From Pyrodictium delaneyi (GTDB lineage Archaea; Thermoproteota; Thermoprotei_A; Sulfolobales; Pyrodictiaceae): a DNA stretch of 32,000 nucleotides. The position numbers were made by a program, and so were the translations under genes. Below the pieces are notes generated by a model, which was given only the letters and a program-made list of their open reading frames with translations, had not been told where the DNA came from and did no database searches. This document shows, piece by piece, positions 1,383-32,000 of this stretch. The DNA is taken from positions 150,001-182,000 of the forward strand of contig NZ_CP013011.1 in the NCBI RefSeq assembly GCF_001412615.1, written 5' to 3'. Positions within the stretch are counted from its first letter, which is position 1. Each line of letters opens with the position of its first letter.

Positions 1383-2792
1383 ATGAGTAGAGATAGGAGT
1401 GACGATCTCTCTAGGCTCCGTGAGCGCGTACTCTATACGGAGAGCTTATCCAGGCTGCTCCTATGGCTAGCAGCGCCCCTCATAGTGTCTGGAAGCGTTG
1501 AGGCCCTATACCAGATTGTAGATACGTTCTGGTTATCACGGTTGGGTAGCGCAGCTCTCGGCACGCCCATTGTGTCGTGGCCCTACCGCGGTATACTCGG
1601 GAGCATAGGATTTGGCTTAGCTAGCTCGATCTCAGCCCTAGCAGGCCAGTATATAGGCGCTAGGCGCTTTGACAGAGCTTCACGTGTCGTGGGAAGCGTT
1701 CTCGGCATCCTACTGGCCTTCGGCATACCAGCCTCATTAGTTCTCGTCGCTGGCCTCAACCTATACTTGGAAGCCATGAATGTCCCCGCGGATATACGCC
1801 CGCTCGCAGCAGTATACATAACGGTGACAGTGCTAACGATACCGCTGACATACATATACCTAGTATTCACTTTCGCCCTAGGAGCAGCAGGGAACACGAG
1901 GACACCCACAAAGATAAGCATAGCCTCGACCCTGACGAACGCAGTACTCGATCCCGTGCTTATCTTCTGGGCCAACATGGGCGTGCTTGGTGCAGCGCTT
2001 GCCACAGCTGCAGCGAACGCTCTCTCGGCTAGCTACGCGGTGTACAGCTTCGCTACAGGACGGCACGGTTACCACATAAGGCTGAAGGACCTCGTGCCCG
2101 AGAAGAACCTCCTACCGACAATTGCTAGGGTCTCTGGGCCGCTCGTAGCCCAGAGGCTTGGCACGAATCTAGGCTTCGTATTCATGGTCAGGATAATCTC
2201 CGGGCTTTCAACCCCGGTAGTAGCGGCCTACTCTATAGGCCAAGTGATACTAAACATAGACCACGTGATAGTAATGCCGATGGTGCGCGCCACGGGTATC
2301 GTTGTAGCTCAAAGCCTTGGGGCTGGTATGACCCGGCGGAGCCGCAGCACAGTACTAACTGGGGGGTTAATCATATCCGGCGCAACCCTAGTCTACATAG
2401 CTTTCCTTCTACTCCTACGTGACTGGTTCATATCTCTATTCACTACTGACCCTCAAGTAGTGGCAGCAGCAAGAAACATGCTGACAATATTTGCGCCCAG
2501 CATCATAGGCTTCAACATGTTCATGCTAGCGAACGTTGTAGCGAGGTCAAGTGGGCACACGGTATTCCTGTCGCTGCTAGGCATAGCTAGACTCTGGTTG
2601 TTCCGGATACCATTATCATGGTTGCTCGCATACCGCCTAGGACTTGGCGACCGTGGACTCTGGACAGGTATGGCCCTTAGCAACTATGTGACAGGAGTTC
2701 TAGCAGTAGCCTGGCTTGCACGAAGAGACTGGGCCAGAGCAGTAATAGAAGAAACAAAAACCGTCGCAACACCAGGCATAGGCGGCAAGTGA
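1383..2792 (+). CDS. MATE family multidrug/oligosaccharidyl-lipid efflux transporter
   Basis: 469 aa and hydrophobic throughout, consistent with about 12 TM segments. The N-terminal LLWLAAPLIVSGSVEALYQIVDTFWLSRLGSAALG fits the MatE-domain signature, and a second half repeat follows (ARVSGPLVAQRLGTNLGFVFMVRIIS...). Confidence 0.8.
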   Translation: MSRDRSDDLSRLRERVLYTESLSRLLLWLAAPLIVSGSVEALYQIVDTFWLSRLGSAALGTPIVSWPYRGILGSIGFGLASSISALAGQYIGARRFDRASRVVGSVLGILLAFGIPASLVLVAGLNLYLEAMNVPADIRPLAAVYITVTVLTIPLTYIYLVFTFALGAAGNTRTPTKISIASTLTNAVLDPVLIFWANMGVLGAALATAAANALSASYAVYSFATGRHGYHIRLKDLVPEKNLLPTIARVSGPLVAQRLGTNLGFVFMVRIISGLSTPVVAAYSIGQVILNIDHVIVMPMVRATGIVVAQSLGAGMTRRSRSTVLTGGLIISGATLVYIAFLLLLRDWFISLFTTDPQVVAAARNMLTIFAPSIIGFNMFMLANVVARSSGHTVFLSLLGIARLWLFRIPLSWLLAYRLGLGDRGLWTGMALSNYVTGVLAVAWLARRDWARAVIEETKTVATPGIGGK

Positions 2793-2954
2793 TTACAACA
2801 ATACAATGCTCATGTGCTAATAAGATGGATTAATGCAGCAAGGCAATATATAACTAACAAAATAGAAGCTGTCATTGCGTAGAGGTTGACTGCAATATAT
2901 CTAATAACGAGATACTGCTAGTTCTTACCTTAGAATAAGCCACGTAGTTTAGTA

Positions 2955-5477
2955 ATGAAGGGTGTAGCTAGGTTGAACACAGCGCGTGCATCCTTCCTTG
3001 CACTCGCATTTGCTCTTGTAGCACTCTTATCCATAGCGTCAATCAGCTACACTCTCTATAAGAATGTAGAGGTTCTATCTATACGTGTTACCAATATCGA
3101 GGAAGCAAACAAGTACCTCAATAACAGCATGGGAGAAGTATTTTGGAAGCTCGAAGAAATGACGACACATATTAAGAAGATAGACGAGAAGCTCGCAGAA
3201 CTAGAGAATAATATATACAATGTGAATGAAGATATGCGAGCCTCAATAGAAGAAGTAAAGAACAGCTTAGAAGCAGCATTGGCTGGTATAAGCAAACAAG
3301 TATACAGACTCGCTGAAACCATAACGGCTATGAGAAACCAGGTAGAGGTACTCCAAGAGAAAGTAATCGAGCTAGAGAATTCTGATAGAGTGTCCTCTGA
3401 AAGGATTAACAACATATATCAAAAGCTCTCAGAACTAGAGAGACAGATCACCGACCTTGCAAAAAGACTTGACAACCTAGAACAAGAGGTAGCAAGACTG
3501 GAGGAACAGGCTGGCGAAAATGCCGGAAAAATCACGGACCTCGAAAACCAGTTATCAGTTATCCAGTCTCTATTGTCCAGCCTCGAGCAGGCAGTTGCGA
3601 CACTCCAAAACGTGGCCAAAGACCTGGTAGAGCGCGTAGAGGCCCTCGAGTCCGCTAACGCTACTATAACCGGTGGTGGATCCACCACTACAGCTGTCGC
3701 TAACGAGACTACAACGAAGATGTTTAAGTGGCTTATACTAGTCTACATGGCTGCTGACAACAATCTAGAACACTACGCGATAAAGGATATCAACGAGATG
3801 GAGGAAGTAGGCTCGACCAGCGACGTGGCAGTCGTAGTACTCGTAGACAGGGCTAGGGGCTTTGACGACAGTAATGGAGGTTGGACAGGCACCCGTGTAT
3901 ACCTAGTTACAAGGGATAACGACCCGGATACTATAGGGTCGCGGCTACTTTTCGACCTGGGCGAACAGAGTACTAACGACCCGCGCTTATTACGCTGGTT
4001 CGTAGAAAACATGACTGCTATGTTTCCAGCTGAACACATCTTGCTTATTCTCTGGAATCATGGTGCCGGTATACTAGGCGGGTTCGCGGTAGACATGGAT
4101 TCTAGCCTTGGCAACAAGACTATGGACGTTGTTGAGATTGCTAATGCACTCCGTGGCCTCGACATAGACATTATAGGGTTTGATGCATGTCTCATGGGAG
4201 GCTATGAGGTGGCCTACTACCTCCAGTCGGTTGGCAAGGTGATGGTAGCCTCGGCTGACACTGAGCCGGTAGAGGGTTGGCCCTACAAGGATATACTGGG
4301 GTACATAGCGGCGAACCCTGATGCAGACGTAGCCGAGGTAGCTGCAAGAATAGTGCAGCTCTACGGCGAGAGTCTGACTGAATACAATATGCCGGCCACA
4401 CTCATAGCGCTAAACCTAACATCTCTACAGAGCGTGAACGAGGCTATAGCAGCCCTTTCCTACCACACCTATACGCCGGAGGACGTCTGGGCTCTAGCCC
4501 GCGCCATGGATGCAGCAGTGATGTACCCGCTCTCCGACCAGTACATGCTATTCCTAATGGGTGTAGCACAATACGGCTACATAGACCTCTACAACGCCCT
4601 CGCTATAGCAGAGCAACTGGCAACCCAGTATACAAGAGGCGTAATAGAGCAGCTAATGGGAGTGTTAGAGAACGCTGTGATAGCCAGCTACGTTGGTACG
4701 GAGTCGCCGGAGGTGCTCGGGCTCTCAGCTATAGGCCGTGAGTCGCTCTATTCAATGACAGCAGAACTGTATAACAAGACGCTGTGGGAGGCCCTCGCGA
4801 CTCCATGGAGCAGTCTAGTAGACAAGGTCGATACAATACTCCTGCAAGACCATGAGCCGCCGCGCGCCTCTGCGAACGTCGTCGAGACCCCTGAAGGAAT
4901 GGAAGTGAATGTTAAAGTGGAGTCGCAGGATGTCTCGAACTTGTATCTAGAGATACGGGATAGTAGAGACAATGCTACACTCAGTATAGTGTTGCTCGCG
5001 CCTAGTACCGGTATAGAGATTGGAGACGAGTATATACCGGTGTGGTTGAACGGCTCAGAGTCGAGCTATGTGTGGAGTGGCGCTGTGTACCAGCTTGTAT
5101 TTAGTGGGACCGTGTATCCCTCGACGGTGGTGATTGACACGGCTACGGGGCTAGGCATAGTACCTGGTATATACCGGGGCGGTCCGCTAGACTATGCAGT
5201 CCCGGCGGTCATGTTCTTCAACTTGTCCACGGGAGAACCGCTCTACGTGGTAGATGCGGAAAACGCGCTACTGGTAGAGCTGACTGAGACCTCTGAGTTC
5301 CTTCCGCTGCTATTGACGCCTATGGGCTGGAGTCATACGAGCGGGTTCCTCCCGGTAGAAGGCCTCCGGCTAGAGCAGGTAGCCCCAAGCGACCTGGGCG
5401 CGGGGCTAGATGTCTACCTCGTTGCGGTAGACCTCGCGGGCAACTTCGCCGAGGAACTATTGTACAGCACAACGTAG
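2955..5477 (+). CDS. membrane-anchored coiled-coil stalk fused to a clostripain-family (peptidase C11) cysteine peptidase, with a C-terminal beta-rich region
   Basis: 840 aa. TM segment SFLALAFALVALLSIASISYTLY. About 200 aa of heptad-like E/L/N/K-rich sequence (LAELENNIYNV, VIELENSD, LSELERQITDL, LDNLEQEVARLEEQ, ITDLENQLSVIQSLLSSLEQAVATLQNV). Thr-rich linker GGGSTTTAVANETTTK. C11 hallmarks: LVYMAADNNLE, catalytic-type His in LILWNHGAG (codon 4059-4061) and Cys in IGFDACLMGG (codon 4188-4190), then VASADTEPVEGWPY. Confidence 0.8.
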   Translation: MKGVARLNTARASFLALAFALVALLSIASISYTLYKNVEVLSIRVTNIEEANKYLNNSMGEVFWKLEEMTTHIKKIDEKLAELENNIYNVNEDMRASIEEVKNSLEAALAGISKQVYRLAETITAMRNQVEVLQEKVIELENSDRVSSERINNIYQKLSELERQITDLAKRLDNLEQEVARLEEQAGENAGKITDLENQLSVIQSLLSSLEQAVATLQNVAKDLVERVEALESANATITGGGSTTTAVANETTTKMFKWLILVYMAADNNLEHYAIKDINEMEEVGSTSDVAVVVLVDRARGFDDSNGGWTGTRVYLVTRDNDPDTIGSRLLFDLGEQSTNDPRLLRWFVENMTAMFPAEHILLILWNHGAGILGGFAVDMDSSLGNKTMDVVEIANALRGLDIDIIGFDACLMGGYEVAYYLQSVGKVMVASADTEPVEGWPYKDILGYIAANPDADVAEVAARIVQLYGESLTEYNMPATLIALNLTSLQSVNEAIAALSYHTYTPEDVWALARAMDAAVMYPLSDQYMLFLMGVAQYGYIDLYNALAIAEQLATQYTRGVIEQLMGVLENAVIASYVGTESPEVLGLSAIGRESLYSMTAELYNKTLWEALATPWSSLVDKVDTILLQDHEPPRASANVVETPEGMEVNVKVESQDVSNLYLEIRDSRDNATLSIVLLAPSTGIEIGDEYIPVWLNGSESSYVWSGAVYQLVFSGTVYPSTVVIDTATGLGIVPGIYRGGPLDYAVPAVMFFNLSTGEPLYVVDAENALLVELTETSEFLPLLLTPMGWSHTSGFLPVEGLRLEQVAPSDLGAGLDVYLVAVDLAGNFAEELLYSTT

Positions 5478-7993: not shown

Positions 7994-8072
7994 TGGTGCG
8001 GCGGCCGGGATTTGAACCCGGGATCACCGGCTTGGGAGGCCGGCGTCCTAGTCCAGGCTAGACGACCGCCGC
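7994..8072 (-). tRNA. tRNA-Gly (anticodon CCC), genomically encoded 3' CCA, no intron
   Basis: The reverse complement reads GCGGCGGTCGTCTAGCCTGGACTAGGACGCCGGCCTCCCAAGCCGGTGATCCCGGGTTCAAATCCCGGCCGCCGCACCA. It has a 7-bp all-G:C acceptor stem, anticodon stem CCGGC/GCCGG with loop CTCCCAA, T arm CCGGG-TTCAAAT-CCCGG, discriminator A and CCA. Folded by hand. Confidence 0.9.
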
Positions 8073-8137
8073 GCCCTGCTGGGCCCGCAGTGTTTGGCCC
8101 GGCCGCTCCATTGGTTTCTCTCGTCGCTGGCTCCGGG

Positions 8138-8145
8138 TTTTATAG
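8138..8145. promoter_or_regulatory. TATA-like box TTTTATAG (CTATAAAA on the other strand) between tRNA-Gly and thpR; possibly bidirectional
   Basis: This is the only A/T-rich element in the GC-rich 91-bp spacer. It begins 26 nt upstream of the GTG at 8164, giving a leaderless or near-leaderless thpR mRNA. It also lies about 66-73 nt upstream of the tRNA 5' end on the other strand, which would imply a roughly 40-nt tRNA leader. Confidence 0.35.
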
Positions 8146-8163
8146 GGTTTCCCTGGGCCCCTG

Positions 8164-8763
8164 GTGGCTCCTGGGTGCGGGTCTGGCTTGAGTGTCGAGC
8201 GTATACGCGCCTTCATAGCGGTCGATATTGAGGATCCACGGGTGGTTTCGCGGCTGGTGCAGATACGTGACGCGTTTGTGGCTACGGGTGCTCCTATGAA
8301 GCCTGTTGAGGACCAGAACCTGCATATCACGCTCCGGTTCCTTGGGAATATACCGTTGAGCCTCGTGGACGAGATTGAGCGTGTGATTGCCGCGTCTACT
8401 CCCCGCCGCGTGGTGATAAGGCTTCGCGGGGTGGGCGCGTTCCCGAGCCCAGCGCGGCCCCGCGTGATATGGGTGGGCGTGTCTGATGGCGCTGAGGAGC
8501 TCGAGCGCCTCTATAGGGAGATCGAGAGGGGGCTACGGCGGCTAGGGTTCCGGCCGGAGCGCGAGCAGTTCGTGCCCCATGTGACGCTTGCACGGCTCAA
8601 GGGGTCGCGGAACCTTGACCGTGTGGTGAAGCTGCTGCGGGAGATGGAGGACGTGGAGGTTGGTGAGATAGTGCTGGAGAGTGTCAGGCTCAAGCAGAGC
8701 ATATTGACGCCGAGGGGTCCGATATACCGGACACTGCGCGAGGTGAAGGCCTCTGAGTCCTAG
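8164..8763 (+). CDS. thpR: RNA 2',3'-cyclic phosphodiesterase / 2'-5' RNA ligase (2H phosphoesterase, ThpR/LigT family)
   Basis: 199 aa with both HxT/Sx motifs of the 2H superfamily: NLHITLRFLG and FVPHVTLARL. The family-typical N-terminus is RAFIAVDI. The start is either GTG 8164 or the in-frame TTG 8188. Confidence 0.85.
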   Translation: MAPGCGSGLSVERIRAFIAVDIEDPRVVSRLVQIRDAFVATGAPMKPVEDQNLHITLRFLGNIPLSLVDEIERVIAASTPRRVVIRLRGVGAFPSPARPRVIWVGVSDGAEELERLYREIERGLRRLGFRPEREQFVPHVTLARLKGSRNLDRVVKLLREMEDVEVGEIVLESVRLKQSILTPRGPIYRTLREVKASES

Positions 8764-9041
8764 GCCTCCCTTTCCCCGTCCTTGCTGCTCTTGTAGCGCT
8801 GCCAGATGGTGCCGCCTTCCCCGTCCTCGATGGCTATGACCCGGTGTAGTGGTATAACTGTGCCGTCTTCTAGCACTAGGTGGCTCCGGGTCACCCTGGC
8901 TATGCGCTCCCGGGGTATCCTCTTGACCCCGGTTGCTGTACCACGCTCGGCTATCACGATGTAGCCTGTGGATGATGTGTGGAAAAACCTTGCCACAGCC
9001 TCGTGTATCTCTCCACGTCGTCCAGGCAACAGTGTGTACAC
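8760..9041 (-). CDS. MJ1316/DUF504-like small protein (RNA cyclic-group end recognition domain)
   Basis: 93 aa. YIVIAERGTATGVKRIPRERIARVTRSHLVLEDGTVIPLHRVIAIEDGEGGTIWQR matches my recollection of the DUF504 consensus (..y.dRg...g.k.ip...i......fl.l.dg..IP.HRI..I....g..iW.R). It lies 27 nt downstream of, and on the same strand as, the flavin-reductase-like gene. Confidence 0.6.
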   Translation of the reverse strand: MYTLLPGRRGEIHEAVARFFHTSSTGYIVIAERGTATGVKRIPRERIARVTRSHLVLEDGTVIPLHRVIAIEDGEGGTIWQRYKSSKDGEREA

Positions 9042-9068
9042 CCTTCCGCGCGGCCTGCCGGGGCTGCT

Positions 9069-9677
9069 CTACACGTTGAGGTCGCTTCTAGCTCTTGGTG
9101 TCCTCTTCGGGGTGTATATGCCGCTGTTGGTGGTGAAGGCGCGGCCGGTGCTGTGGAGGAGTATCCGGGCCTTGCGTAGCTCCCAGCCGTAACGGGGATT
9201 GTAGAGCTCCGCGTCAGCGTAGGCTGCTGCCACATCGGCCACTATTAGGTGGACGTCATCTGCTAGGTCGCTGAGAACCCTGTAGACACGGGCCTCGACA
9301 ACGCCCACTGGCCGGGGCTTGACTAGCCTAGGGGCCCCCGTGACCGTGTCGCGGGCGACCTCGGCGCCGAGGAGCCTCAGCTTGTCGACCTCCCTGCCGC
9401 TGGTCGTGCCGGCAGCGTAGACGAAGTCTACCTCGTCCACAGTGAACACGTTGACGGTGAATACGCCAGACTCTATTATCAGCTCCGGGGTGTAGGCCTC
9501 CCTGTCGAGGGCGGCGACTATCCGTGGCGGCTCCTCGCTGAAGGGCATCACCCAGGACGCTGACATGAAGTTTACCCGGCCCCGGGCCTCGGCTACGAGC
9601 ACGTAGGCTGGCCGGGGTGCTAGGACACGTGGCCACCGCTCACCGGCGTCCACGTAGCCTTCGGGGACTCCTGCCAC
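9069..9677 (-). CDS. flavin reductase-like FMN-binding domain protein
   Basis: 202 aa. PRPAYVLVAEARGRVNFMSASWVMPFSEEPPRIVAALDREAYTPELIIESGVFTVNV is the typical core of the flavin_reduct split-barrel domain. GTG start. Confidence 0.75.
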   Translation of the reverse strand: MAGVPEGYVDAGERWPRVLAPRPAYVLVAEARGRVNFMSASWVMPFSEEPPRIVAALDREAYTPELIIESGVFTVNVFTVDEVDFVYAAGTTSGREVDKLRLLGAEVARDTVTGAPRLVKPRPVGVVEARVYRVLSDLADDVHLIVADVAAAYADAELYNPRYGWELRKARILLHSTGRAFTTNSGIYTPKRTPRARSDLNV

Positions 9678-9868
9678 GGCGCAGACACCGAGTGTGTTCC
9701 TAGATTCGGCGCCCTATACTAGCTCCTACACGGGTTGCCCAGTCGTCTGTGGCGTGTGTCGGCTGGGTAGAGTGTCCGGGACGTACGCTATAATTGGGGG
9801 TTCACGGTGGTAGTGGCCCCTGGGGGAAACCACTCGGCCTAGAGCGAGGACGCGAGGTGTAAACACGT

Positions 9869-11323
9869 ATGAGCGCGAGGATACCCTTGAAGAGGGTTAG
9901 CGACTATGAGTGGATGATACCTAAGGGCGCTAAGCCCTGCATGAGGGTCCCATCGATAATCTTCGCCGATGACTTCCTGCTCGAGAAAATGAAGGGCGAC
10001 CTCACGCTAGTACAGGCTGCTAACGTAGCCTGCCTCCAGGGTATACAGAAGTACAGCATTGTGATGCCCGACGGACACCAGGGCTACGGATTCCCGATCG
10101 GCGGCGTAGCAGCCATGGCTATAGACGAAGACGGTGTGATAAGCCCCGGCGGTGTCGGTTACGATATCAACTGTGGTGTACGCGTCATACGTACCAACCT
10201 CGACATAAAGGATGTGAAGCCTAAGCTACGCGAGCTCATAGAGGAGCTATTCCGCAACATACCAAGCGGCCTCGGCAGCACTGGCAAGATACGCCTCAGT
10301 GTACAAGAGCTAGACCGTGTACTAAACGAGGGTGTCGAGTGGGCGGTACAGAAGGGCTACGGCTGGGCCGACGACCCGGAGCACATCGAGGAGCGGGGTA
10401 GCTGGAGCCTAGCAGACGCTAGCAAGGTGAGCCAGCGCGCTAAGAGGCGTGGCGCTGAACAGCTAGGCACCCTGGGCAGCGGTAACCACTTCCTAGAGGT
10501 ACAGGTAGTCGACAAGATATACGACCCAGAGATAGCCAAGGCGATGGGTATAACCCATGAAGGCCAGATAATGGTCATGGTGCATACCGGCAGCCGTGGC
10601 CTAGGCCACCAGGTCGCAAGCGACTACCTCATGATAATGGAGCGTGCCATGAGGAAGTATGGTATAAGGCCGCCAGACCGCGAGCTAGCCAGCGTGCCCT
10701 ACAGCACCCGCGAGGCTCAGGACTACCTCCGCGCAATGGCAGCAGCGGCCAACTTTGCCTGGACCAACAGGCAGCTCATAACCTACTGGACCCGCGAGAG
10801 CTTCCAGCGCGTATTCCACCGCGACCCAGACCAGCTCGACATGAAGATAGTCTACGACGTAGCCCACAATATAGCCAAGATAGAGGAGCACGACGTAGAC
10901 GGCAAGAGGATGAAGCTCATAGTACACCGCAAGGGCGCCACTAGGGCCTTCCCACCAGGCCACCCAGAGATACCCAAGGACTACCAGGCGATAGGCCAGC
11001 CCGTGCTCATACCCGGCAGCATGGGTACTGCGAGCTACATACTGGTAGGTGTCCCCACTGGCGCCCGTGCCTGGTACACAGCGCCCCACGGCGCAGGCCG
11101 CTGGATGAGCCGCGCAGCGGCCAAGAGGAGCAGGAGCTACCACGAGGTCATAAGGGAGCTAGAGCAGAAGGGTATACTGATACGCGCTAGCAGCCGTGCC
11201 ACAGTCGTAGAGGAGATGCCACAGGCCTACAAGGACGTAGACCGTGTAGCCCTCGTAGCCCACAAGGTAGGCATAGCCAAGATGGTCGTAAGGCTACGCC
11301 CCATAGCCGTGACAAAGGGCTAA
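9869..11323 (+). CDS. rtcB: RNA-splicing ligase RtcB (3'-phosphate/5'-hydroxyl RNA ligase), intein-free
   Basis: 484 aa with the RtcB signatures PDGHQGYGFPIGG, GGVGYDINCGVR, GSGNHFLEVQ, HTGSRGLGHQ, DVAHNIA, PGSMG and APHGAGR (the guanylylated-His motif). Confidence 0.95.
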   Translation: MSARIPLKRVSDYEWMIPKGAKPCMRVPSIIFADDFLLEKMKGDLTLVQAANVACLQGIQKYSIVMPDGHQGYGFPIGGVAAMAIDEDGVISPGGVGYDINCGVRVIRTNLDIKDVKPKLRELIEELFRNIPSGLGSTGKIRLSVQELDRVLNEGVEWAVQKGYGWADDPEHIEERGSWSLADASKVSQRAKRRGAEQLGTLGSGNHFLEVQVVDKIYDPEIAKAMGITHEGQIMVMVHTGSRGLGHQVASDYLMIMERAMRKYGIRPPDRELASVPYSTREAQDYLRAMAAAANFAWTNRQLITYWTRESFQRVFHRDPDQLDMKIVYDVAHNIAKIEEHDVDGKRMKLIVHRKGATRAFPPGHPEIPKDYQAIGQPVLIPGSMGTASYILVGVPTGARAWYTAPHGAGRWMSRAAAKRSRSYHEVIRELEQKGILIRASSRATVVEEMPQAYKDVDRVALVAHKVGIAKMVVRLRPIAVTKG

Positions 11324-11361
11324 CCTCGTGCCCAAGCCTTTGTCTTCATCAAAATGTTTTT
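11311..11361 (+). terminator. hairpin spanning the rtcB stop codon followed by a T5 tract (putative archaeal terminator)
   Basis: GACAAAGG (11311-11318) pairs with CCTTTGTC (11337-11344) across an 18-nt loop that contains the TAA stop. TTTTT lies at 11357-11361. Oligo-T is the usual archaeal termination signal. Confidence 0.35.
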
Positions 11362-11564
11362 ACGCGTGGCATCCAAGCTGTCCACCTTCTCCCCATGTCC
11401 CTAGGTTATCCCGGCTACGACTCTCTCAGCTACAAGCCTGCGAGGCCCCCGGGCCAGAGTTGTTGCGTGACGTATGCTACTTCTGGTGTCTCTGCCAGCA
11501 AGGGAACCCCTATCAGTCGGTAGACACCTAGGTAGAAGCCTCTCGGGGAGGAGGCTGGAGAGGA

Positions 11565-12071
11565 ATGAGCGGTGAGGGCCCCTTCGAGGACATCGAGAAG
11601 GGTCTACGCGAAGTGCTAGCCCAGCTAAAGTGCCCCGGCTTCGCTCATGCGCCCCATACAGCGGACATAATCATAGTCGCCCGTGGCCGTAGTCTTGAGG
11701 AGGCGTTCGAGCAAGCGGCGCGCGGCGTCTACGAGGTTATAACCGATACGAGTAAGGTCGAGCCCCGCGAGGAACGGGTAATAGAGACTAGCGGTGTCGA
11801 CCTCTACCAGCTCCTCTACCGGTGGATAGAGGACCTCCTCTACTACACTGATAGTGAGGGCCTCGTGTTCTCAAAGTTCAAGGTGGAGCGTATAGAGCGG
11901 ATTGGCGAGGGCGAGGAGGCCGAGTACCGTCTAAAGGGCCGAGCCTGGGGCGAGCCCTTCAACGAGGAGAAGCACCCGCACCGTACCATAGTTAAGGCTA
12001 TGACCTATGCTATGATGGAGATTGTAAAGGAGAATGGCTGCTGGAGAGTACAGTTCGTTGTCGACATATAG
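11565..12071 (+). CDS. archease (RtcB activator/chaperone)
   Basis: 168 aa. It has the N-terminal HTADIIIVARGRSLEEAFEQAARGVYEV and the C-terminal VKAMTYAMMEIVKENGCWRVQFVVDI typical of archease. A GGAGG-rich stretch lies directly upstream. Confidence 0.9.
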   Translation: MSGEGPFEDIEKGLREVLAQLKCPGFAHAPHTADIIIVARGRSLEEAFEQAARGVYEVITDTSKVEPREERVIETSGVDLYQLLYRWIEDLLYYTDSEGLVFSKFKVERIERIGEGEEAEYRLKGRAWGEPFNEEKHPHRTIVKAMTYAMMEIVKENGCWRVQFVVDI

Positions 12072-12168
12072 CTGCGGCGAGATCTGCGGCTTCCCGCCCT
12101 CTATCTACTGTGGGGTCATTTACACCTCCTACCGGTCTAGCCGGTGGAGGACTAATATTCTGTAGACA

Positions 12169-12573
12169 GTGCTAGGGCTTTTTGGTGGGTCTGTGGTGGG
12201 CTTGCTTACTAGCCTACTACGAGGCCTCGTAGTGCGTCGACCCGGCCTTGAGGGCCAAGGTGGTGCTGAAGGACCCTTAGCAGATAGGCTGCGGGAGGCT
12301 GAGGAAGCACTTCGTAGCGTGGTGCTCCCGGGCTACGATGTAGACATAATCTCCGCGGGGCTCGTCGAGAGGATACGCGTCGGGCTCGACGGTAAGTCGA
12401 TCATGGTTGTGCTGGGATATAGTAGGAGTAATCCTGGCTGCAGCTTCTGCCGCTTCATAAGCAGTGTTGCGTGGACAAAGATTATACGTGACACGAGGCG
12501 TGCACTAGCTGCTAGAGGGTTCGATAAGATAGTACTGGTCGATGGAGCTACGGGCGCCGAGCTTGACGCATAG
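12169..12573 (+). CDS. small protein with a DUF59/MIP18-like (Fe-S assembly-type) core; function uncertain
   Basis: 134 aa. EEALRSVVLPGYDVDIISAGLVERIRVGLDGKSIMVVLGYSRSNPGCSFC resembles the DUF59 pattern (V.DP....ivdlGlv..i.v.......v.m.lT..gCP). GTG start and a hydrophobic N-terminal extension. Confidence 0.4.
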   Translation: MLGLFGGSVVGLLTSLLRGLVVRRPGLEGQGGAEGPLADRLREAEEALRSVVLPGYDVDIISAGLVERIRVGLDGKSIMVVLGYSRSNPGCSFCRFISSVAWTKIIRDTRRALAARGFDKIVLVDGATGAELDA

Positions 12574-21885: not shown

Positions 21886-22011
21886 GGCGGATCCCGGCTT
21901 GGGGGCGCTGCGGGGCCTCGCGGACCCCACAGCCTCCCCCAACGCGGCCGGCTTAACTTCCGGGTTCGACACGAGTCCGGGTGTTGCCCGACCGCTATGG
22001 CCGGGTCCAGG
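21886..22011 (-). rRNA. 5S ribosomal RNA, stand-alone gene (ends +/- about 5 nt)
   Basis: The minus strand reads ...CTGGACCCGGCCATAGCGGTCGGGCAACACCCGGACTCGTGTCGAACCCGGAAGTTAAGCCGGCCGCGTTGGGGGAGGCTGTGGGGTCCGCGAGGCCCCGCAGCGCCCCCAAGCCGGGATCCG... The block GGGCAACACCCGGACUC...UCGAACCCGGAAGUUAAGCC is the conserved crenarchaeal 5S core as I recall it from Sulfolobus. The termini pair as helix I (GGACCCGG with CCGGG-A-TCC). A pyrimidine-rich tract follows the 3' end. Confidence 0.9.
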
Positions 22012-24763: not shown

Positions 24764-24913
24764 TTAGTGATCTATTCTCGGTCTTTTCCTAGACAATATT
24801 GCTATAGCTATTACTATAGGTATAGCCACCATGGTGGTCAACGTAATGTAGTTTATTTGGTTGCCTGAACTCTCTATGATGTTGCTATCTAGAACTGTCA
24901 ACTGGATTTTCAT
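24764..24913 (-). CDS. candidate 49-aa small membrane protein (below the ORF-track length cutoff)
   Basis: Own translation: MKIQLTVLDSNIIESSGNQINYITLTTMVAIPIVIAIAILSRKRPRIDH. Its ATG overlaps the TGA stop of the upstream gene (ATGA at 24910-24913). It has a C-terminal TM helix followed by a basic tail. It lies in AT-rich DNA, so a chance ORF is possible. Confidence 0.3.
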   Translation of the reverse strand: MKIQLTVLDSNIIESSGNQINYITLTTMVAIPIVIAIAILSRKRPRIDH

Positions 24914-25512
24914 CTCGACCCCATGTGATCCATGGAGGTCTCGACCTTCTTTAGGAACCCGGTAGCAGCGTCGTAGACGGCCATGCTGGATGTGGTCTCG
25001 CTCTCTAGCATGATGCGTATCTCGTTGTCCAGCCTCTCTACTCTTGCACCTTTTCGCTCAAGGCTGTTGGCCATCTCGTTAAGCTTGCTTAGTGGACAGT
25101 AGAGCGGAACCTCGTTGGCGCCACCGTCACCCGGTATGAAGCAGTCATCATACCTAGCCGTATACTCCAATACCTGCTCGCCCTTCATGCTCTCTACTAG
25201 GCTAGCTAGTTGTTGGCGCGCTTCTTCGGGTTTTACCTTGATGCTTGTTATCTTGCTTGCTATTCTTACTCGGAAACTCTCATCACCGGTCTCTATGATT
25301 TCCAGTCTTACCTTGCCAGAGGCATCGAGATACACCTTCTGGCCGTTGTGGTACGCGCTAAGCCCGAGATCTAGCTGGTACTCGATGTACCTTCCTTGCT
25401 GGGCCCAGCCTGGTGTTGCATGAGAAACCGTTGTTGCTAAGAGTAGGAGCAACAACACTGAAAGAAGGACATGTGCCAGTCTATCTATATCATGCAAGAT
25501 TTGATCAGACAC
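24910..25512 (-). CDS. hypothetical secreted or membrane-anchored protein
   Basis: 200 aa. The N-terminal hydrophobic segment HVLLSVLLLLLLATTVSHATPG acts as a signal peptide or anchor. By eye it shares motifs with the 6309..6830 product. Confidence 0.5.
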   Translation of the reverse strand: MSDQILHDIDRLAHVLLSVLLLLLLATTVSHATPGWAQQGRYIEYQLDLGLSAYHNGQKVYLDASGKVRLEIIETGDESFRVRIASKITSIKVKPEEARQQLASLVESMKGEQVLEYTARYDDCFIPGDGGANEVPLYCPLSKLNEMANSLERKGARVERLDNEIRIMLESETTSSMAVYDAATGFLKKVETSMDHMGSR

Positions 25513-26331: not shown

Positions 26332-26441
26332 CTAAGGCCCATTAGCCTCACCGTTATGATTACAACTCCATTAGTCGTCGAGGGATACAGACTCTAGAGC
26401 CTTACAACCGGATAGCGATATACGGGGCGTGGCATACAACC

Positions 26442-29400
26442 ATGCATCTTCGGGATAGCCGACGCGTTACGGCACTAACACTACTTGTACTGGTGCTGCT
26501 ATCAGTCCTCATCCCCGCTCTACCGGCCCATGCACAATCATCAACAGACCTAGCCGATCAACTCCGTAGACTGCTCGAGCAGCTCTACAACAACACGATC
26601 AACTATAGTGAGGCAGTCCAGCTCTACCAGGATATAGCCTCATGCTCGCAGCCTCCGCTCTCGGACAAAGCTGCTAGGACAGCAAAGGTTCTAGAGGAGG
26701 CGGCCCAGGGTCGAGTCACGACCCAGCTAGTCAAGGAGACATTGTTAGACTACGTGTACTCGGCGGGAGAGAACATAGACGCCTTCGCGGGCTGTAGCTC
26801 CAGTCTAGTTTACCGGAGCATCCTGCTAGCATTCTCTGTCCCAACACCTGCTGGGCTCCTCCCCGCCTCCCTGCCCACAGACACCATGAGCCAGACTGCG
26901 ATGCAGCTAGCCTACGAGATAGTGTACAGACTCACCGGGAGCAGCGAGCTAGCGACAAGGGCAGCAAGTATAGCCCGTGCGGACCCCTACGCTGGCCTAC
27001 TCCTGGTCGGGCTCGCTGGCCGCCCAGACCAGGACTTCTGGACAACCATAGCCACGAATACCACTAGCCGCAGCGGCCTCTGCCTCGTATACTCGCTTGC
27101 CTCGACAGACGTCATACCCTCAGACACAGCGGTTGCAGCCCTCGCTGCCGTGGCAGGGGCGGCCTACGCCTATGGCCCCGGAGAAGTATTGTCGAAAGCA
27201 GCCCATATGCTCGAGACGGGCGACCTCATATGCTATGCAGCCACCGTGAACTTGTTAGACGCAGCGTACCGCGGCTACGTTGACAGACTCCTCCCCCTCT
27301 ACACGCTCCCCGAGGGCCTAGAGCCACCCGAGGCCCCAGTAGTAGGGGGCCTCGACGCAGCCCGACTAGCCGGCGCACTTGCTGCAAGGGAAGGGCATGA
27401 GCCTAGCATCCTACTCGCAGCCCTGGCCAGGATACAGGGCAGGCTTGTGGCTAGCCCCTCCGGGCTAGCAGCGGTCATGCGGGCCCATAATGCCTCTATT
27501 CCGTCGTTGCCCAGCGGGAGTAGCTACTGTACAGTTTTCGAGGCTGCTGTGAGGAGCATCCTCGACCCCGACGTAACAGAGACCCAAGCAGCGTGGAGCG
27601 TCGCTGCTGCGGCGGCGAGCCTCTGCTACGCCGATACCGGGTCCCCCGAGCCGCTGATAGCCCTACTCCTCTTCCAGCCCTTTACGGCCCCCGACCCGTG
27701 GCTGTTAGCCGAGGGCATCAAGCGCCAGGCTAGCCAGAACGGTGACCAGGCCTTCGCCGGCTATGCCTCGAAGGTATCCCAGCTCGCGTGGGAGGGGAGG
27801 CTGGAGGAAGCAGCAAGTGTAGAGCCCGAGGGGCCTCCTGAGACCCGTCTAGCATACATACTGTTCTCGGCTGCTGTAGCAGGGCTACAGGAAGGATTCA
27901 ATCCCCTTGTGGTCAACGTGGACAATTCTACTGCTTTAGCCTTGCTCGAGGCGGCTGGTTTCGAGTCGCCCCGGGACGCAGTCCTAGTAGTGCTGGACCC
28001 GGCCCGAGTGATGGAAGAGATTGTGAAGAGTAATACTACGTCACTGGAGCAGTTAGGAGCCCTCGCCCGAGCGGCCTCGATACGGCCCCTCCACGGGGGC
28101 TACGTTCTCGACTATGCCGACGTACGCGTGGTGTCCTGGACTATAGTCCACATGTACTCCTGGCTCCGCGATGGCTACGAGTTACCGCCTCCAGGCCAGC
28201 CTCCCGGCGGGGATACGCTACTATCCTGGGCTCTGGGCTACCTGACTACCATGCAGCCGCCGGCCAAGCCGGCTGGGGACGCCGGAGAGGGTCAGCATGT
28301 GGCCATAACGAACACAACAACTGTGGAGGGAGAGCCTAGCACGACTAGCAATACTACAGCAAATAGTGAGGCTAGCGCGCCCGTTAACGCCACGGATATA
28401 GGGGTGGCATCGCCCGAGATAGAGCAGCTCGCCCGACAGCTAGAAAGCCTAGCTGACATGCTCCGCACGGTGCCTGGTAACGATACAGCTAGGCAGGCTC
28501 AGGCTGAAGCAATAGCGGAGCTGCTAGACCAGATAGCCCAGAGCATACGCGAAGGAGACTACGCCTCCGCGGTAGCCGCTAGCCAGCAGCTACAACAGAT
28601 GCTAGAGGAGACAACAGGTAGTGATGTACTGCAGCTACTCCAGCTAGCCCAGCTTCTCCGAAACGATACAAGCTCCTGGGATGTAGCCCAAATTCTGGCC
28701 AAGGCGGCTAGCCTCAGGCTAGAGAACAGCACAGTGTCGATAGACCTAGGGGAGATGAGCCAGCTAACCGACCTCCTCGCCACGACTGGGCAGCAGAGTC
28801 TTCTAAACGAGCTAGAGAGAGCTGTAACAAGTGGAGAGGCCGAGAAAGTCGCAGACATAATAGAGACGATAGCTAGTAGAGGCGGCGAAGAACAGCTCCG
28901 TGAGGCCATCAGGATTCTCGCCGAGGAGAGCGGTGCCGGCGAAGAAGTGGCAAGGATCTTAGAGATAAGAGGGCTTGGAGACTTGGCAGCCCAGCTCTAC
29001 CAGGTCCTTGGAGGCCAGACGCCCCAAGCGGTAGCAGGTACAGCCCAGGAGGCCGTAGAGCTGCCAGTCTCCGGCAGCTATACTGCTGGCTCACAGGCAT
29101 CGAATGCTACGGTGTACCAGTCTCCAAGCCTCCCCAAGCTCCCGCCAGCGCCTAGTCTCCCTAGCAACCTCCCAGGCTTAGCTGGGCTCGGCTTCCTAGC
29201 AGCACCACTACTCCTTGCAGGTCTAGCACTACTAGCGGCTACCCGGTACCGGGAGATAATGGCTCTCGTTGCCCGCGTAAGGCTCGCAAGGCTAGAACGC
29301 CGTCTAGCATCCTCAGTGGCTGGAGACGCTAGGCCCCGGGAGGCACGAAGAGTAATAGTGGAGGCGTTTAGCCAGATCCTCCGCCTCTATGAGGCCGTCT

Positions 29401-29642
29401 ATGCGCCCCGAGCGGTTAGCGAGACGCACCGCGAGTATGCTGGGAAGCTGCCCGTGGAGGAGAAGACGCGTTACATCCCGGCGGCGATGGTCTACGAGAA
29501 GGCAAAGTTCAGTAACGAGCCGGTTAGCGGTCGCGACGTGGAGACTCTGCAGAGGATTCTATCCGAGATAAGACGCGTCATAGGAGCGCTGGATAATGCG
29601 AAGAGTGGTATGAAGAGGAAGCTGCTAGGTGGCAGGAAGTGA
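26442..29642 (+). CDS. large secreted glycoprotein-like protein with a C-terminal TM anchor and a cytoplasmic DUF4129-like tail
   Basis: 1066 aa. Signal peptide MHLRDSRRVTALTLLVLVLLSVLIPALPAHA|QSS. The Ala-rich helical ectodomain of about 900 aa carries many NxS/T sequons and a Thr/Asn linker (NTTTVEGEPSTTSNTTANSEASAPVNAT). A coiled-coil-like Q/L/E-rich stretch and a Pro-rich PSLPKLPPAPSLPSNLP segment follow. The TM is GLGFLAAPLLLAGLALLAAT followed by RYR. The tail EARRVIVEAFSQILRLYEAVYAPRAVSETHREYAGKLP...AAMVYEKAKFSNEPVS fits the DUF4129 pattern (..tp.E....l.....ye.arys..p). Confidence 0.8.
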   Translation: MHLRDSRRVTALTLLVLVLLSVLIPALPAHAQSSTDLADQLRRLLEQLYNNTINYSEAVQLYQDIASCSQPPLSDKAARTAKVLEEAAQGRVTTQLVKETLLDYVYSAGENIDAFAGCSSSLVYRSILLAFSVPTPAGLLPASLPTDTMSQTAMQLAYEIVYRLTGSSELATRAASIARADPYAGLLLVGLAGRPDQDFWTTIATNTTSRSGLCLVYSLASTDVIPSDTAVAALAAVAGAAYAYGPGEVLSKAAHMLETGDLICYAATVNLLDAAYRGYVDRLLPLYTLPEGLEPPEAPVVGGLDAARLAGALAAREGHEPSILLAALARIQGRLVASPSGLAAVMRAHNASIPSLPSGSSYCTVFEAAVRSILDPDVTETQAAWSVAAAAASLCYADTGSPEPLIALLLFQPFTAPDPWLLAEGIKRQASQNGDQAFAGYASKVSQLAWEGRLEEAASVEPEGPPETRLAYILFSAAVAGLQEGFNPLVVNVDNSTALALLEAAGFESPRDAVLVVLDPARVMEEIVKSNTTSLEQLGALARAASIRPLHGGYVLDYADVRVVSWTIVHMYSWLRDGYELPPPGQPPGGDTLLSWALGYLTTMQPPAKPAGDAGEGQHVAITNTTTVEGEPSTTSNTTANSEASAPVNATDIGVASPEIEQLARQLESLADMLRTVPGNDTARQAQAEAIAELLDQIAQSIREGDYASAVAASQQLQQMLEETTGSDVLQLLQLAQLLRNDTSSWDVAQILAKAASLRLENSTVSIDLGEMSQLTDLLATTGQQSLLNELERAVTSGEAEKVADIIETIASRGGEEQLREAIRILAEESGAGEEVARILEIRGLGDLAAQLYQVLGGQTPQAVAGTAQEAVELPVSGSYTAGSQASNATVYQSPSLPKLPPAPSLPSNLPGLAGLGFLAAPLLLAGLALLAATRYREIMALVARVRLARLERRLASSVAGDARPREARRVIVEAFSQILRLYEAVYAPRAVSETHREYAGKLPVEEKTRYIPAAMVYEKAKFSNEPVSGRDVETLQRILSEIRRVIGALDNAKSGMKRKLLGGRK

Positions 29643-31009
29643 TAGGTCTCAAAGGGTTTCTAGCAGGATTGTCACTAGTAGCTCTCGTAGCCGCTATACT
29701 ATCCGCTCCAAAGGTGGTCAAGCTAGGCTCTATGCCCGAGTTGCGAGCCGGCTCGCCGGGCGATGCAGGACCCCAAGGACACTCGCTACTAGCTAGACTC
29801 CTTGAGGACAGAGGCTACCAAGTCTCCTATGATGTCGAGCCGCCGCTAGACTGGCAAGGCTCTGTGGTCTACTTCATAGCAGGGCCTACAGATTGTAATG
29901 CTGAGGTAGTCAAGGAGGTAGCAGAGAATGCCAAAGCACTTGCAGCAATAGGACTGCGCGTAGGTATAATAGTGGCTGACGAGGGCGCGTGTGCCCAACA
30001 TCTACTAGGCATGCTAGGTGCACCTACCATAGGGCTTTCACCTGGGCCACAGAATGAGCCATGGCTAGCACTGTACCAGGATCAAGGCGTGATATTCGCA
30101 ATGTATACTGCATCCATAATCACGTATATCGCATCGACACCTAATGGTGGAGAATGGCAACAGACAGCTGTGACGCTGTATCCTCGTGGATTCCCGGCAA
30201 TACTTGAATGGAATAGTAGCTTAAGAGTAGTCTATATACCGGATAGCCACGTTTTCAATAACATGGTACTAGGGGCGGCTAATGAGACGGGGCTGGGTAA
30301 CGCGGAGCTAGCAGTAACGCTTGTCGAGAAGCTAGGCGGCAACAATGCTATCGTTCTTATGCCTTTAGGTTTCTATCAACTCGTAAACCCTAGCATCCCC
30401 CTCTTAGCCTACATACACCCTGGCATGCTTATTCTCCGGGCTGTAGAGAGGTTATCCGGCTTCGAGGCTATGGTAATCGAGTCAATGATGATGAATCCGC
30501 TTGCAGCAACAGTGCTGGTTATAGGAGTAATGTCTGTGCTCTACATGGCTTTTGCACAGATGACAGGTAAAGACTGGGTTGAGGAAAGGCCTCCACAGCA
30601 GCCCGAACCGTCCCGGGTACTCGGTGCCTCCCCCGTGCTTGAGAAGCTACAGAAAGGCGTAAAGCTTACACGGGAGGAGGCTCGTCAAGCGCTTGCAACT
30701 CTCTACGAAGTGGTTGACGAGGCTCTACGGCTACGGCTCGGTGCTGGGTTGAGAGAGGTGCTTGAGAACCCTGGGCTCCTCGAGAGCGTAACACGTGGAG
30801 CCGGGATAGACTATGAACGGGTTCTCGAGGGGCTCAAGGAGCTGTACCGGCTCTACGATGTTAAGATTAGAGCTAGACGGCTCTTTCCGCTCGTATTTTC
30901 CTGGAGGCGTAGGCTATACTACGTGCTTGAGCGTGTAGAGCCTCTACTCGAAACTATGGGCGTAGGGCTAGCGGAGGTAAGGAGTATTGAGTACAGCTTC
31001 ACCCGTTAG
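29639..31009 (+). CDS. two-anchor membrane protein, DUF4350-like extracellular domain plus cytoplasmic helical tail
   Basis: 456 aa. The GTG start overlaps the upstream stop (GTGA, 29639-29642). N-terminal [19 protein letters not shown]. The ecto part begins [18 protein letters not shown], like the DUF4350 opening (G.sal..lL...G..v). A second hydrophobic segment is [21 protein letters not shown], followed by a roughly 150-aa charged helical C-terminus. Confidence 0.6.
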
Positions 31010-31940
31010 TACAATAGCTAGGCTAGCCGAGAGGGTTACCAGCGAGGTATCAAAAGTAGTCTATGGGTTAGAGGAGGAGCTACGCATAATTCTCGCAGCT
31101 CTGCTGGCTGGAGGACATGTGCTCCTGGAGGGTGTCCCAGGTGTCGCGAAAACAACACTAGCCAAGGCGCTCGCTTCCAGCATGAAGCTGGAGTTCAAAA
31201 GGATACAGTTCACTCCTGATCTCCTTCCTAGCGACATAATCGGCACGATGGTCTATGACCAGAGGAGTGGCGAGTTTCGGCTCCGCCGCGGCCCCGTGTT
31301 CACCAATATACTCCTTGCAGACGAGATCAACCGCGCCTCGCCTAGAACCCAGAGTGCATTGCTGGAAGCGATGCAGGAGCGGCAGGTAACCATAGAAGGG
31401 CAGACCCTCAGTCTCCCCGAGCCGTTCCTCGTCATAGCCACCCAGAACCCGATAGAGCTTGAGGGCACATTTCCTCTACCCGAGGCGCAGATAGACAGGT
31501 TCCTCGTCAAAGTAGTCATCCCGATGCCTGGCAGAGAAGTCCTGCGAAGGATACTCCGCGGCCTCGAGACTATCGAGAGCTGGCCGGTCGAGCCAGTAGC
31601 AAGCAGGGAAGACGTAGTAGAAGCCCGAAAGGCCATATGGAGCGTAGAGGTCAGTGATCCGGTCCTAGACTACATCATAGACCTAGTAGAGGAGACCCAT
31701 CGCCATCCCGACGTGAGACTCGGCGCAGGCCCTCGAGCAGCCATTGCACTACAGCAGGTGGCGCGTGCCCTTGCAGCCATGGAGGGCCGGAGCTACGTTA
31801 TACCCGATGATGTGAAGACTGCAGCGCGTTACGTGCTAGTACACAGGATTATACTCAAGCCCGAAGCCGAGGCCGAGGGACGCCGTCCTGAAGATGTATT
31901 GGACACAATACTATCCAAGGTGCCGGTTCCCGTTCCCTAG
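30987..31940 (+). CDS. MoxR-family AAA+ ATPase
   Basis: 317 aa. Walker A: [18 protein letters not shown]. Walker B and sensor region: [31 protein letters not shown]. Then [24 protein letters not shown] and the C-terminal lid [12 protein letters not shown]...YVIPDDVK. All are canonical MoxR (AAA_3) features. The TTG start overlaps the upstream gene by 23 nt. Confidence 0.9.
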
Positions 31941-32000
31941 TCAAGCCTGCATAGATACCTTATAGGTTCTATAATCTGGGGGCGGCAAGGGTATTGATCG

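Follow-up and report, generated by a model that had tools for sequence, protein, structure and literature searches.

MoxR ATPases have been described as chaperone-like maturases of dedicated complexes (PMC3893208), and reviews place operons that combine MoxR with DUF58 in the MRP subfamily and describe the role of DUF58 as unknown (PMC12067865). In archaea, Makarova, Galperin, and Koonin (2015) reported a neighborhood of arCOG01314 (DUF4350) with a COG0714 ATPase, von Willebrand factor A (vWA) proteins, and membrane or S-layer-like proteins; they inferred a fold of the GATase-like class for DUF4350/GldG and predicted that the neighborhood encodes a novel secretion or membrane-remodeling complex (PMC5898192). 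We compare these systems with a locus of Pyrodictium delaneyi, of which 32,000 nt were analyzed (the window; positions are window positions). Region 26442-32000 holds genes 1–3 of a six-gene operon, which encode a predicted bitopic surface protein with a DUF4129 tail (P1), a divergent DUF4350/GIFT-fold protein (P2), and a MoxR ATPase (P3). A DUF58 protein (P4) and two further membrane proteins (P5 and P6) complete the operon. Very probably, the locus represents in Pyrodictium a membrane module of MoxR, DUF58, DUF4350, and DUF4129 that is found widely. It reveals no new kind of system: it is a lineage-specific version of a computationally described module, and only the giant orphan ectodomain of P1 is unusual. 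A first-pass annotation of this DNA had overstated the novelty of the arrangement, as the DUF4350-MoxR-vWA neighborhood was already in the 2015 account (PMC5898192).

Like the complex predicted by Makarova et al., the Pyrodictium operon brings together a GldG/GIFT-like flavodoxin-fold membrane-anchored protein, MoxR, a vWA/DUF58 protein, and extra membrane proteins. It differs in that no Ig-like S-layer-type component (arCOG02884/PF07760 and relatives) was found in it by Pfam search, in that its DUF4350 protein adds a predicted cytoplasmic tail of ~150 aa, and in that the P1 ectodomain and P5 are orphans. A DUF4129-tail protein, which Pyrodictium has in P1, is not named as a component in the parts of the 2015 paper used here, and the function published there is itself a prediction (PMC5898192).

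Strings in Actinobacteria and Geoglobus agree with Pyrodictium in their four families and in gene order, and their DUF58 likewise has a degenerate metal ion-dependent adhesion site (MIDAS), but the actinobacterial DUF4129 protein reaches at most ~230–320 aa, compared with 1066 aa in Pyrodictium, and the polytopic partner belongs to another family. The Pseudomonas aeruginosa genes PA2875 and PA2874 we take to be MoxR and DUF58. TgpA (PA2873), an essential protein with a periplasmic transglutaminase domain, is co-transcribed with them and is the sole experimentally studied protein of the DUF4129-tail class found in our literature search (PMC3507681). Like P1, TgpA has an extracytoplasmic domain, a transmembrane (TM) helix, and a C-terminal segment; its two co-transcribed genes lie upstream (PMC3507681). 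Unlike P1, which has a single signal peptide and no transglutaminase core, TgpA is an active transglutaminase with a polytopic N terminus (PMC3507681), and it has no DUF4350 partner.

Two further groups of MoxR systems are comparable. The Bat/aerotolerance operons of Bacteroidota and spirochetes (MoxR-DUF58-BatA-BatB) resemble the Pyrodictium operon in having an MRP-type MoxR, DUF58, and membrane proteins and in being envelope-associated, but their DUF58/vWA proteins carry the canonical DxSxS motif and are accompanied by extra vWA paralogues (PMC5700661). They also lack DUF4129 and DUF4350 partners (0 of 15 loci with a canonical MIDAS in the survey below). The Esr pathway and the MoxR-vWA-β-propeller systems likewise link a large surface protein across the envelope to MoxR-vWA, in some cases with a transglutaminase (PMC13622651; PMC7159879). 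In oral Actinobacteria, a surface filament together with MoxR, vWA, and transglutaminase is reported to transduce sensing of epibionts or threats from the outside in (PMC13622651, a 2026 preprint). These systems, however, use β-propeller sensors, a Ser/Thr kinase, a phosphatase, FHA outputs, or effectors (PMC13622651; PMC7159879), none of which occurs in the Pyrodictium operon, and they differ in MoxR type, P3 being a classical AAA_3 MoxR and not bpMoxR. A reading of the locus as a defense system was set aside: PADLOC gave only weak P-loop and coiled-coil matches, and there were no Pfam matches to β-propeller, kinase/FHA, or effector families.

Gene order and proteins of the operon

Three same-strand genes without spacers had been proposed for the region, and the open reading frames (ORFs) lie exactly where they had been placed (Table 1). 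In the raw sequence, the P1 stop and P2 start share GTGA at 29639-29642, and P2 and P3 overlap by 23 nt (30987-31009). Shine-Dalgarno-like, purine-rich motifs precede the starts of P2 (AGGTGG, 29627-29632) and P3 (GGAGGT, 30973-30978, and AGGAG, 30980-30984). The P3 ORF has no other in-frame start upstream of residue 10, and its TTG start gains support from MoxR relatives of several phyla, whose alignments begin at query residues 1–3. A TATA-like A/T-rich element (ATATA, 26418-26422) stands ~22 nt ahead of the P1 ATG, in an intergenic region that, judged from sequence, is a candidate operon promoter. The window ends 60 nt past the MoxR stop, and the 53-nt spacer between MoxR and DUF58 contains no oligo-T run.

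The region 26442-32000 is base-for-base identical to P. delaneyi contig NCQP01000006.1, and P1 is 100% identical to P. delaneyi Pyrde_0197, so the hyperthermophilic crenarchaeal host supposed in the first-pass annotation is correct. Our literature search found no paper naming Pyrde_0197-0199 or CF15_01165/01170. The six genes keep their order and overlapping junctions across P. delaneyi, P. occultum, and P. abyssi, with protein identities of 45–65%; in the latter two species, P1 and P2 overlap by 4 nt and P2 and P3 by 23–44 nt. Chance adjacency, or mis-annotated ORFs that form no functional unit, might be considered because P2 and the P1 ectodomain lack direct family matches and the GTG and TTG starts were mechanically assigned. 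Since the same junction overlaps recur in P. occultum and P. abyssi, however, the arrangement is not chance; synteny effectively refutes this explanation, which also sits poorly with the alignment of MoxR relatives from the first residues of P3 and with the co-occurrence of the same four families across bacteria and archaea, and we find it scarcely credible.

P3, expected to be a soluble MoxR AAA+ ATPase, is from its sequence unambiguously an MRP-type one. It matches AAA_3 (PF07726) at 2.8e-67 and AAA_lid_2 (PF17863) at 2.3e-25, and bpMoxR far more weakly, at 4.4e-10. Pattern searches located Walker A (GVPGVAKT, residues 49–56), sensor 1 (ATQN), DRF in the arginine-finger region, and GAGPR (sensor 2), and Walker B (LLADE) was read in the translation. 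The closest solved relative is PDB 2r44_A (2.6e-85).

The topologies of the operon proteins were predicted from Kyte-Doolittle hydropathy, charge, and sequon statistics only. For P1, these agree with the signal peptide, large ectodomain, single TM helix, and inside tail proposed earlier. Hydropathy gives two hydrophobic segments (residues 6–33 and 910–936); there are four Lys or Arg in the 15 residues after the TM helix compared with one before; and 13 of the 22 ectodomain Asn residues fall within N-X-S/T sequons, where 3.2 would be expected (binomial p = 1.6e-6), whereas the tail has zero sequons. The ectodomain is net acidic (50 Lys + Arg, 102 Asp + Glu) and the tail net basic (28 and 16, respectively). 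P1 is thus predicted to be a signal peptide–bearing surface glycoprotein with ~870 extracellular residues, one TM helix, and a DUF4129 tail.

The ectodomain of P1 evolves faster than its tail, the best-conserved region of the protein (54–64% identity across species). Residues 34–605 are kept within Pyrodictium (49–62% interspecies identity), are Ala/Leu-rich and predicted to be almost wholly helical, and contain six invariant cysteines; the linker at 606–656 is hypervariable (18–22%), with sequons at residues 624, 637, and 649. A word-indexed search returned five homologue clusters, all of Pyrodictium type, and no ectodomain homologue was found outside such organisms. No fold is assigned to P1, because the AlphaFold model built from this five-sequence alignment has a predicted local distance difference test (pLDDT) score of 58.5 and a Foldseek search with it gave no structural match, only generic α-solenoids at E ≥ 0.1. 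Matches of residues 597–796 to Med21 (1.3e-4) and PADLOC BrxC (4.3e-5) were rejected as spurious, being sub-threshold and resembling long-helix matching.

A DUF4129-like segment had been anticipated in the tail and is present, if marginally: PF13559 matches residues 976–1040 at 25.1 bits, just over its cut-off of 24.8 (E = 1.8e-5). All five members of the P1 family carry the precomputed PF13559 match, and short positional equivalents of the tail in the two archaeal loci L003 and L004 match DUF4129 at 4.7e-7 and 2.2e-7. The residues conserved across the family, in a C-terminal segment that follows the last TM helix, are T-x-x-E and YE.ARY/F. P1 keeps the T-x-x-E motif, with T995 found in 31/31 and E998 in 30/31 non-redundant DUF4129 representatives; this motif could simply be a helix-capping box. 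The family was named from its attachment to a transglutaminase core. Such attachment is a frequent context of DUF4129 and no requirement, and P1 gave no Pfam match to Transglut_core at E ≤ 1.

Transitive homology and modeled fold, and not direct hidden Markov model (HMM) membership, identify P2 as a divergent DUF4350/GIFT-type protein, so the DUF4350-like assignment proposed for it stands through intermediates and the AlphaFold fold, although the proposed direct test against PF14258 failed. A word-indexed search found four relatives, all of Pyrodictium type, which would have suggested an orphan; an exhaustive profile search corrected this, recovering 106 representative clusters, of which many match over the full length. 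Of 71 sampled relatives from the profile, 44 match PF14258 (best 1e-13), 4 match ABC_transp_aux (GldG-like), and 1 matches IFT52_GIFT, whereas just one of five close relatives touches DUF4350 (E = 0.012). The family profile finds the IFT52 GIFT domain in the PDB (5fmr_A, E = 1.6e-5).

The AlphaFold model of P2 from the profile alignment (pLDDT 90.2) comprises an N-terminal helix, blocks at 25–259 and 261–308, and a bundle at 332–455. Per-residue scores are mostly 83–98 in the ectodomain and 84–98 at residues 331–440 of the tail, ~55 in the 311–330 linker, and low at the C-terminal end. Foldseek relates the ectodomain to 7bob_C (a glycosidase domain; E = 2.7e-4) and to carbamoyl-phosphate synthetase small-subunit chains (6e-3 to 6e-2), with TM-scores that are low (0.2–0.3) because a single domain aligns; this is the class of fold put forward for DUF4350/GldG in 2015 (PMC5898192). 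Hydrophobic segments at 1–31 and 277–310 agree with the model on the TM-ectodomain-TM arrangement and inside tail of ~150 aa predicted earlier. In many distant relatives, the best-scoring stretch is mainly the tail (311–456). Because no catalytic-type residues are conserved across the family, in which only G47, P83, and N208 are near-invariant, we read the ectodomain, on sequence grounds, as a binding or scaffold domain. Homology between the P1 and P2 tails was considered and rejected (hhalign probability 8%).

A DUF58/vWA partner had been expected just downstream, and a PF01882 gene begins 53 nt after the MoxR stop. P4 (467 aa; 11008-12411 of the public contig region L001; PF01882 at 4.4e-20) has a two-helix membrane hairpin at residues ~21–71, a basic stretch after it, and zero sequons; because of these three features, its C-terminal part of ~400 residues is placed in the cytoplasm. 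P5 overlaps the DUF58 gene by 4 nt and is a 412-aa polytopic membrane protein with charged loops; P6, which begins 12 nt after P5, has 86 aa and two TM helices. Neither belongs to a family, and both are orphans in family searches. DUF58, with its predicted cytoplasmic part, and P5, with its charged loops, are thus also within reach of the ATPase, and the view that it has access to nothing in the cytoplasm but the P1 and P2 tails does not hold. A transglutaminase-like gene, also expected downstream, is absent from the ORFs of the downstream contig searched with Pfam; the operon ends instead with the orphan polytopic protein and the small two-TM protein.

Table 1. Features of the operon within the 32,000-nt window
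Feature	Position	Strand	Description
Candidate operon promoter region	26332-26441	+	Intergenic, between divergent upstream gene and P1
P1 (Pyrde_0197)	26442-29642	+	ATG start, 1066 aa; bitopic surface protein (predicted), DUF4129 cytoplasmic tail
P1 residues 1–33	26442-26540	+	Predicted signal peptide; basic N terminus, hydrophobic core, AHA-Q; hydropathy 6–33
P1 residues 34–605	26541-28256	+	Helical N-terminal ectodomain; alignment; AlphaFold2 helices, moderate confidence
P1 residues 606–656	28257-28409	+	Disordered Thr/Ser/Asn-rich linker; pLDDT <50; sequons dense
P1 residues 657–860	28410-29021	+	Second helical ectodomain region, possibly stalk; AlphaFold2 secondary structure
P1 residues 910–936	29169-29249	+	TM helix; hydropathy peak 2.27
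P1 residues 937–1066	29250-29639	+	Net-basic predicted cytoplasmic tail; DUF4129 at 976–1040 (nt 29367-29561)
P2	29639-31009	+	GTG start, 456 aa; divergent DUF4350/GIFT-fold bitopic protein
P2 residues 25–259	29711-30415	+	α/β ectodomain; class-I glutamine-amidotransferase-like (flavodoxin-like) fold; AlphaFold2, Foldseek, profile
P2 residues 261–308	30419-30562	+	Long membrane-spanning helix; AlphaFold2 helices 261–285 and 287–308
P2 residues 311–456	30569-31006	+	Conserved helical-bundle tail, predicted cytoplasmic; no known family
P3	30987-31940	+	TTG start, 317 aa; MRP-type MoxR AAA+ ATPase
Spacer and DUF58 start	31941-32000	+	53-nt spacer, then TTG at 31994; 7 nt within window

Two uncharacterized small genes (244/249 and 245 aa) lie upstream of P1 in P. 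delaneyi; the upstream genes have other sizes in P. occultum and P. abyssi. The divergent 245-aa gene directly upstream of P1 (25594-26331, minus strand) has no TM helix and no family match. At 24910-25512 (minus strand), a 1-bp deletion at about 24919 relative to NCQP01000006.1 truncates a protein that has a signal peptide and a TM anchor at its C terminus from 249 to 200 aa, and the anchor is lost; four single-nucleotide differences from that contig fall at 23679, 24049, 25122, and 25286. Beyond the window, a convergent gene (L001 13916-15361, minus strand) overlaps the P6 stop by 4 nt and encodes an N-terminally anchored protein of 463/481 aa with no family and, by eye and uncounted, many N-X-S/T sites. 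This gene is found in P. delaneyi only; in P. occultum and P. abyssi, P6 abuts an ABC-transporter gene. Elsewhere in the window are a stand-alone 5S rRNA gene (21889-22008, minus strand) and a tRNA-Gly(CCC) gene (7994-8072, minus strand), and G+C content is 0.48 at 2001-4000 and 0.625 at 8001-10000, compared with ~0.56 elsewhere.

Distribution of the module and the DUF58 metal site

The survey took the closest MoxR homologues as anchors and covered 80 loci, one genome per species, in which six-frame ORFs were searched with HMMs iterated from the operon proteins. Among these loci, 46 have a DUF4129-tail protein, 25 a DUF4350-like protein, and ~70 a DUF58 protein. The strings of DUF4129, DUF4350, MoxR, and DUF58 that the first-pass annotation had ascribed to Actinobacteria and haloarchaea were found, and at least 15 loci from Streptomyces and Kribbella (Actinobacteria) have precisely the order DUF4129-DUF4350-MoxR-DUF58, as does Geoglobus. 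The nearest archaeal loci, from Ignisphaera (L003) and metagenome-assembled genomes of Thermoproteota (L004 and L005), carry DUF4129, DUF4350, DUF58, and a homologue of P6, but the genes are permuted, so that the Pyrodictium gene order differs from that of its nearest archaeal relatives. The synteny predicted for related genomes extends, as the three-gene arrangement, over three Pyrodictium species and, as a co-occurrence of four families, across bacteria and archaea.

The DUF4129 segment is C-terminal in all 48 ORFs matched (46 from other loci and the Pyrodictium locus, fetched twice), whereas the ectodomain in front of this constant tail varies: it may contain a transglutaminase core, resemble Ig-like or CarboxypepD_reg domains, be reduced to a very short stretch, or, as in Pyrodictium, be an orphan helical domain. 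The Alkaliphilus protein (L049), which adjoins MoxR-DUF58, has the architecture of TgpA, namely TgpA_N, Transglut_core, and DUF4129; actinobacterial proteins have a very short ectodomain; and weak, sub-threshold Ig-like or CarboxypepD_reg matches occur in Geoglobus, the haloarchaeon Natronosalvus, and Methanocellaceae. At 1066 aa, P1 had been thought an unusual elaboration of a short component. It is indeed the longest of 47 DUF4129-tail proteins sampled, but it sits on a continuum, as the others range from 90 to 797 aa and versions of 600–800 aa exist. Two ORFs with predicted TM helices, 1979 and 1989 aa long, also lie near MoxR modules, upstream of the DUF4350 gene in Natronosalvus (L015) and directly upstream of MoxR in Bifidobacterium castoris (L031), where the ORF is probably fn3 of the PFNA operon; very large surface proteins beside MoxR-DUF58 therefore recur in unrelated lineages.

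The polytopic partner varies by lineage: DUF1616/PF07760 in haloarchaea, a DUF7544-like protein in Streptomyces (DUF7544/GPDPase_memb-like in L043), and an orphan in Pyrodictium. In two haloarchaeal loci, DUF1616/PF07760 (E ~1e-100) follows the DUF4129 protein (L015, 16085-17158; L070, 16577-17500). Polytopic partners of the SpoIIM/DUF95 or RDD type were absent from the ten scanned, which gave DUF1616, DUF7544/GPDPase_memb, a single unrelated TauE, or no family at all. In L003–L005, 7-TM proteins occupy the place of P5, and their homology to it was likewise rejected (hhalign probability 0.1, both single-sequence and profile-profile).

The haloarchaeal DUF1616/PF07760 partner is the arCOG02884 component of the 2015 model and bears on a secretion or translocation apparatus, in which DUF4350, P5/P6, and MoxR-vWA would form an export machine with P1 as cargo or as an envelope-spanning component. 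The neighborhood fits the predicted cluster of arCOG01314, COG0714, and vWA membrane proteins (PMC5898192), and MoxR1 of Mycobacterium tuberculosis is reported to aid Tat export of RipA (cited in PMC12067865). We nevertheless consider such an apparatus quite unlikely here. P1 needs no special exporter because a Sec-type signal peptide and a stop-transfer TM helix are part of the protein itself; no channel-forming or secretin-like family was detected in the operon, P5 and P6 being orphans; translocation motors are not known among MoxR ATPases; and Pyrodictium lacks the Ig-like S-layer-type components that the published model includes.

The DUF58 proteins were also compared at the first MIDAS motif, canonically DxSxS where the first β-strand ends. 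P. delaneyi has D-A-L-P-T there, P. occultum D-A-W-P-S, and P. abyssi D-A-H-P-S. Among 71 MoxR-adjacent DUF58 proteins, read at motif 1 only from the HMM alignment, the canonical motif is found in 0 of 46 from loci with a DUF4129 or DUF4350 partner and in 15 of 25 from loci with neither, these 15 being mostly in Bat-type loci. The association (Fisher p = 3.6e-9) is uncorrected for phylogeny and inflated by relatedness, many of the loci being from Streptomyces. As DUF58 here lacks the canonical motif, a classical metal-mediated contact between vWA and ligand is not to be assumed.

This degenerate site also weighs on another use of the ATPase. CbbQ-CbbO, NorQ-NorD, and the MoxR of methanol dehydrogenase mature specific enzymes. 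The characterized RavA-ViaA does so as well (PMC3893208), and P3 might in the same way act as a chaperone that inserts a cofactor into, or matures, some soluble or respiratory enzyme whose gene lies outside the operon, its membrane neighbors being only loosely related. Against this stand the tight, overlapping, and phylum-spanning linkage to DUF4129 and DUF4350 membrane proteins, the altered MIDAS, and the lack of a candidate enzyme gene in the operon of any of the three species, which together make maturation of such an enzyme very improbable.

Proposed direction of action and possible role in the envelope

We suggest that the MoxR hexamer would dock at the cytoplasmic face on DUF58 acting as a membrane-tethered adaptor, and that MoxR would spend ATP on remodeling or assembling a membrane complex by way of the P1 and P2 tails, which are conserved and predicted to be cytoplasmic. 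Remodeling of the tails could then set the assembly state or conformation of the P1 and P2 ectodomains, which lie in a compartment without ATP, in a manner likened to mechanotransmission by FtsEX or MacB-type ATPases. The sequence data show gene content and order, overlaps, families, and conservation, and topology is predicted; the contacts, the direction in which information flows, and the biological role are what we infer in this proposal. Taken as a whole, that is, the identity of the module together with MoxR-driven inside-out remodeling of a membrane complex, we regard it as evenly poised between right and wrong; the ATP-driven, inside-out direction of action, considered by itself, is tentative and falls somewhat short of an even chance.

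Several points weigh against this proposal. Confidence in the P1 model is low (pLDDT 58.5), P2 has no Pfam family at E ≤ 1 and an equally empty NCBIfam search, and P5 shows no detectable homology to the polytopic proteins in equivalent positions elsewhere. DUF58 lacks the canonical DxSxS motif, and an internal promoter could sit in the 53-nt gap ahead of its gene. Finally, a constant tail behind a variable ectodomain is also the look of a receptor family.

This last point leads to sensing from the outside in. The DUF4129 ectodomain, perhaps with that of DUF4350, would detect an envelope or extracellular cue and pass it through the TM helix and tail to DUF58 and MoxR, which would serve as a threshold switch acting in the cytoplasm or the membrane, along the lines suggested for the Esr and MoxR-vWA ternary systems. 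Constant tails with highly variable ectodomains are typical of receptor families, the P1 ectodomain does evolve faster than its tail, and such a reading agrees equally well with the experimental precedent from oral Actinobacteria, a filament with MoxR, vWA, and transglutaminase (PMC13622651). The operon, however, contains no kinase, phosphatase, FHA protein, β-propeller, effector, or transcription factor; its PADLOC matches are only P-loop noise; and P3 fits AAA_3 far better than bpMoxR. On balance, we judge outside-in sensing to be unlikely.

Inside-out remodeling by MoxR admits a broader form, in which the DUF4129 tail and the DUF4350 bundle would be universal handles through which a MIDAS-less DUF58 and MoxR send ATP-driven force to unrelated ectodomains. 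This generalization is speculative, and we would not expect it to hold. If it were true, the module would be a device for AAA+ mechanotransmission from the inside out that is general to prokaryotic envelopes, recruited in Pyrodictium to a protein whose length would let it span the pseudo-periplasm and act on the S-layer or extracellular matrix.

MoxR-DUF58 with DUF4129 or DUF4350 partners stands beside more than half of the closest sampled MoxR homologues, and the module spans Actinobacteria, Chloroflexota, haloarchaea, methanogens, and Thermoproteota. The Pyrodictium operon offers a clean and compact six-gene example, in which constant cytoplasmic tails can be set against a replaceable ectodomain. 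This split of domains, together with the loss of the MIDAS serines in this subclass of DUF58, reduces the number of possible couplings between ATPase and envelope. For Pyrodictium itself, the cysteine-containing, sequon-rich, 870-aa orphan ectodomain of P1 is a candidate component of the envelope.

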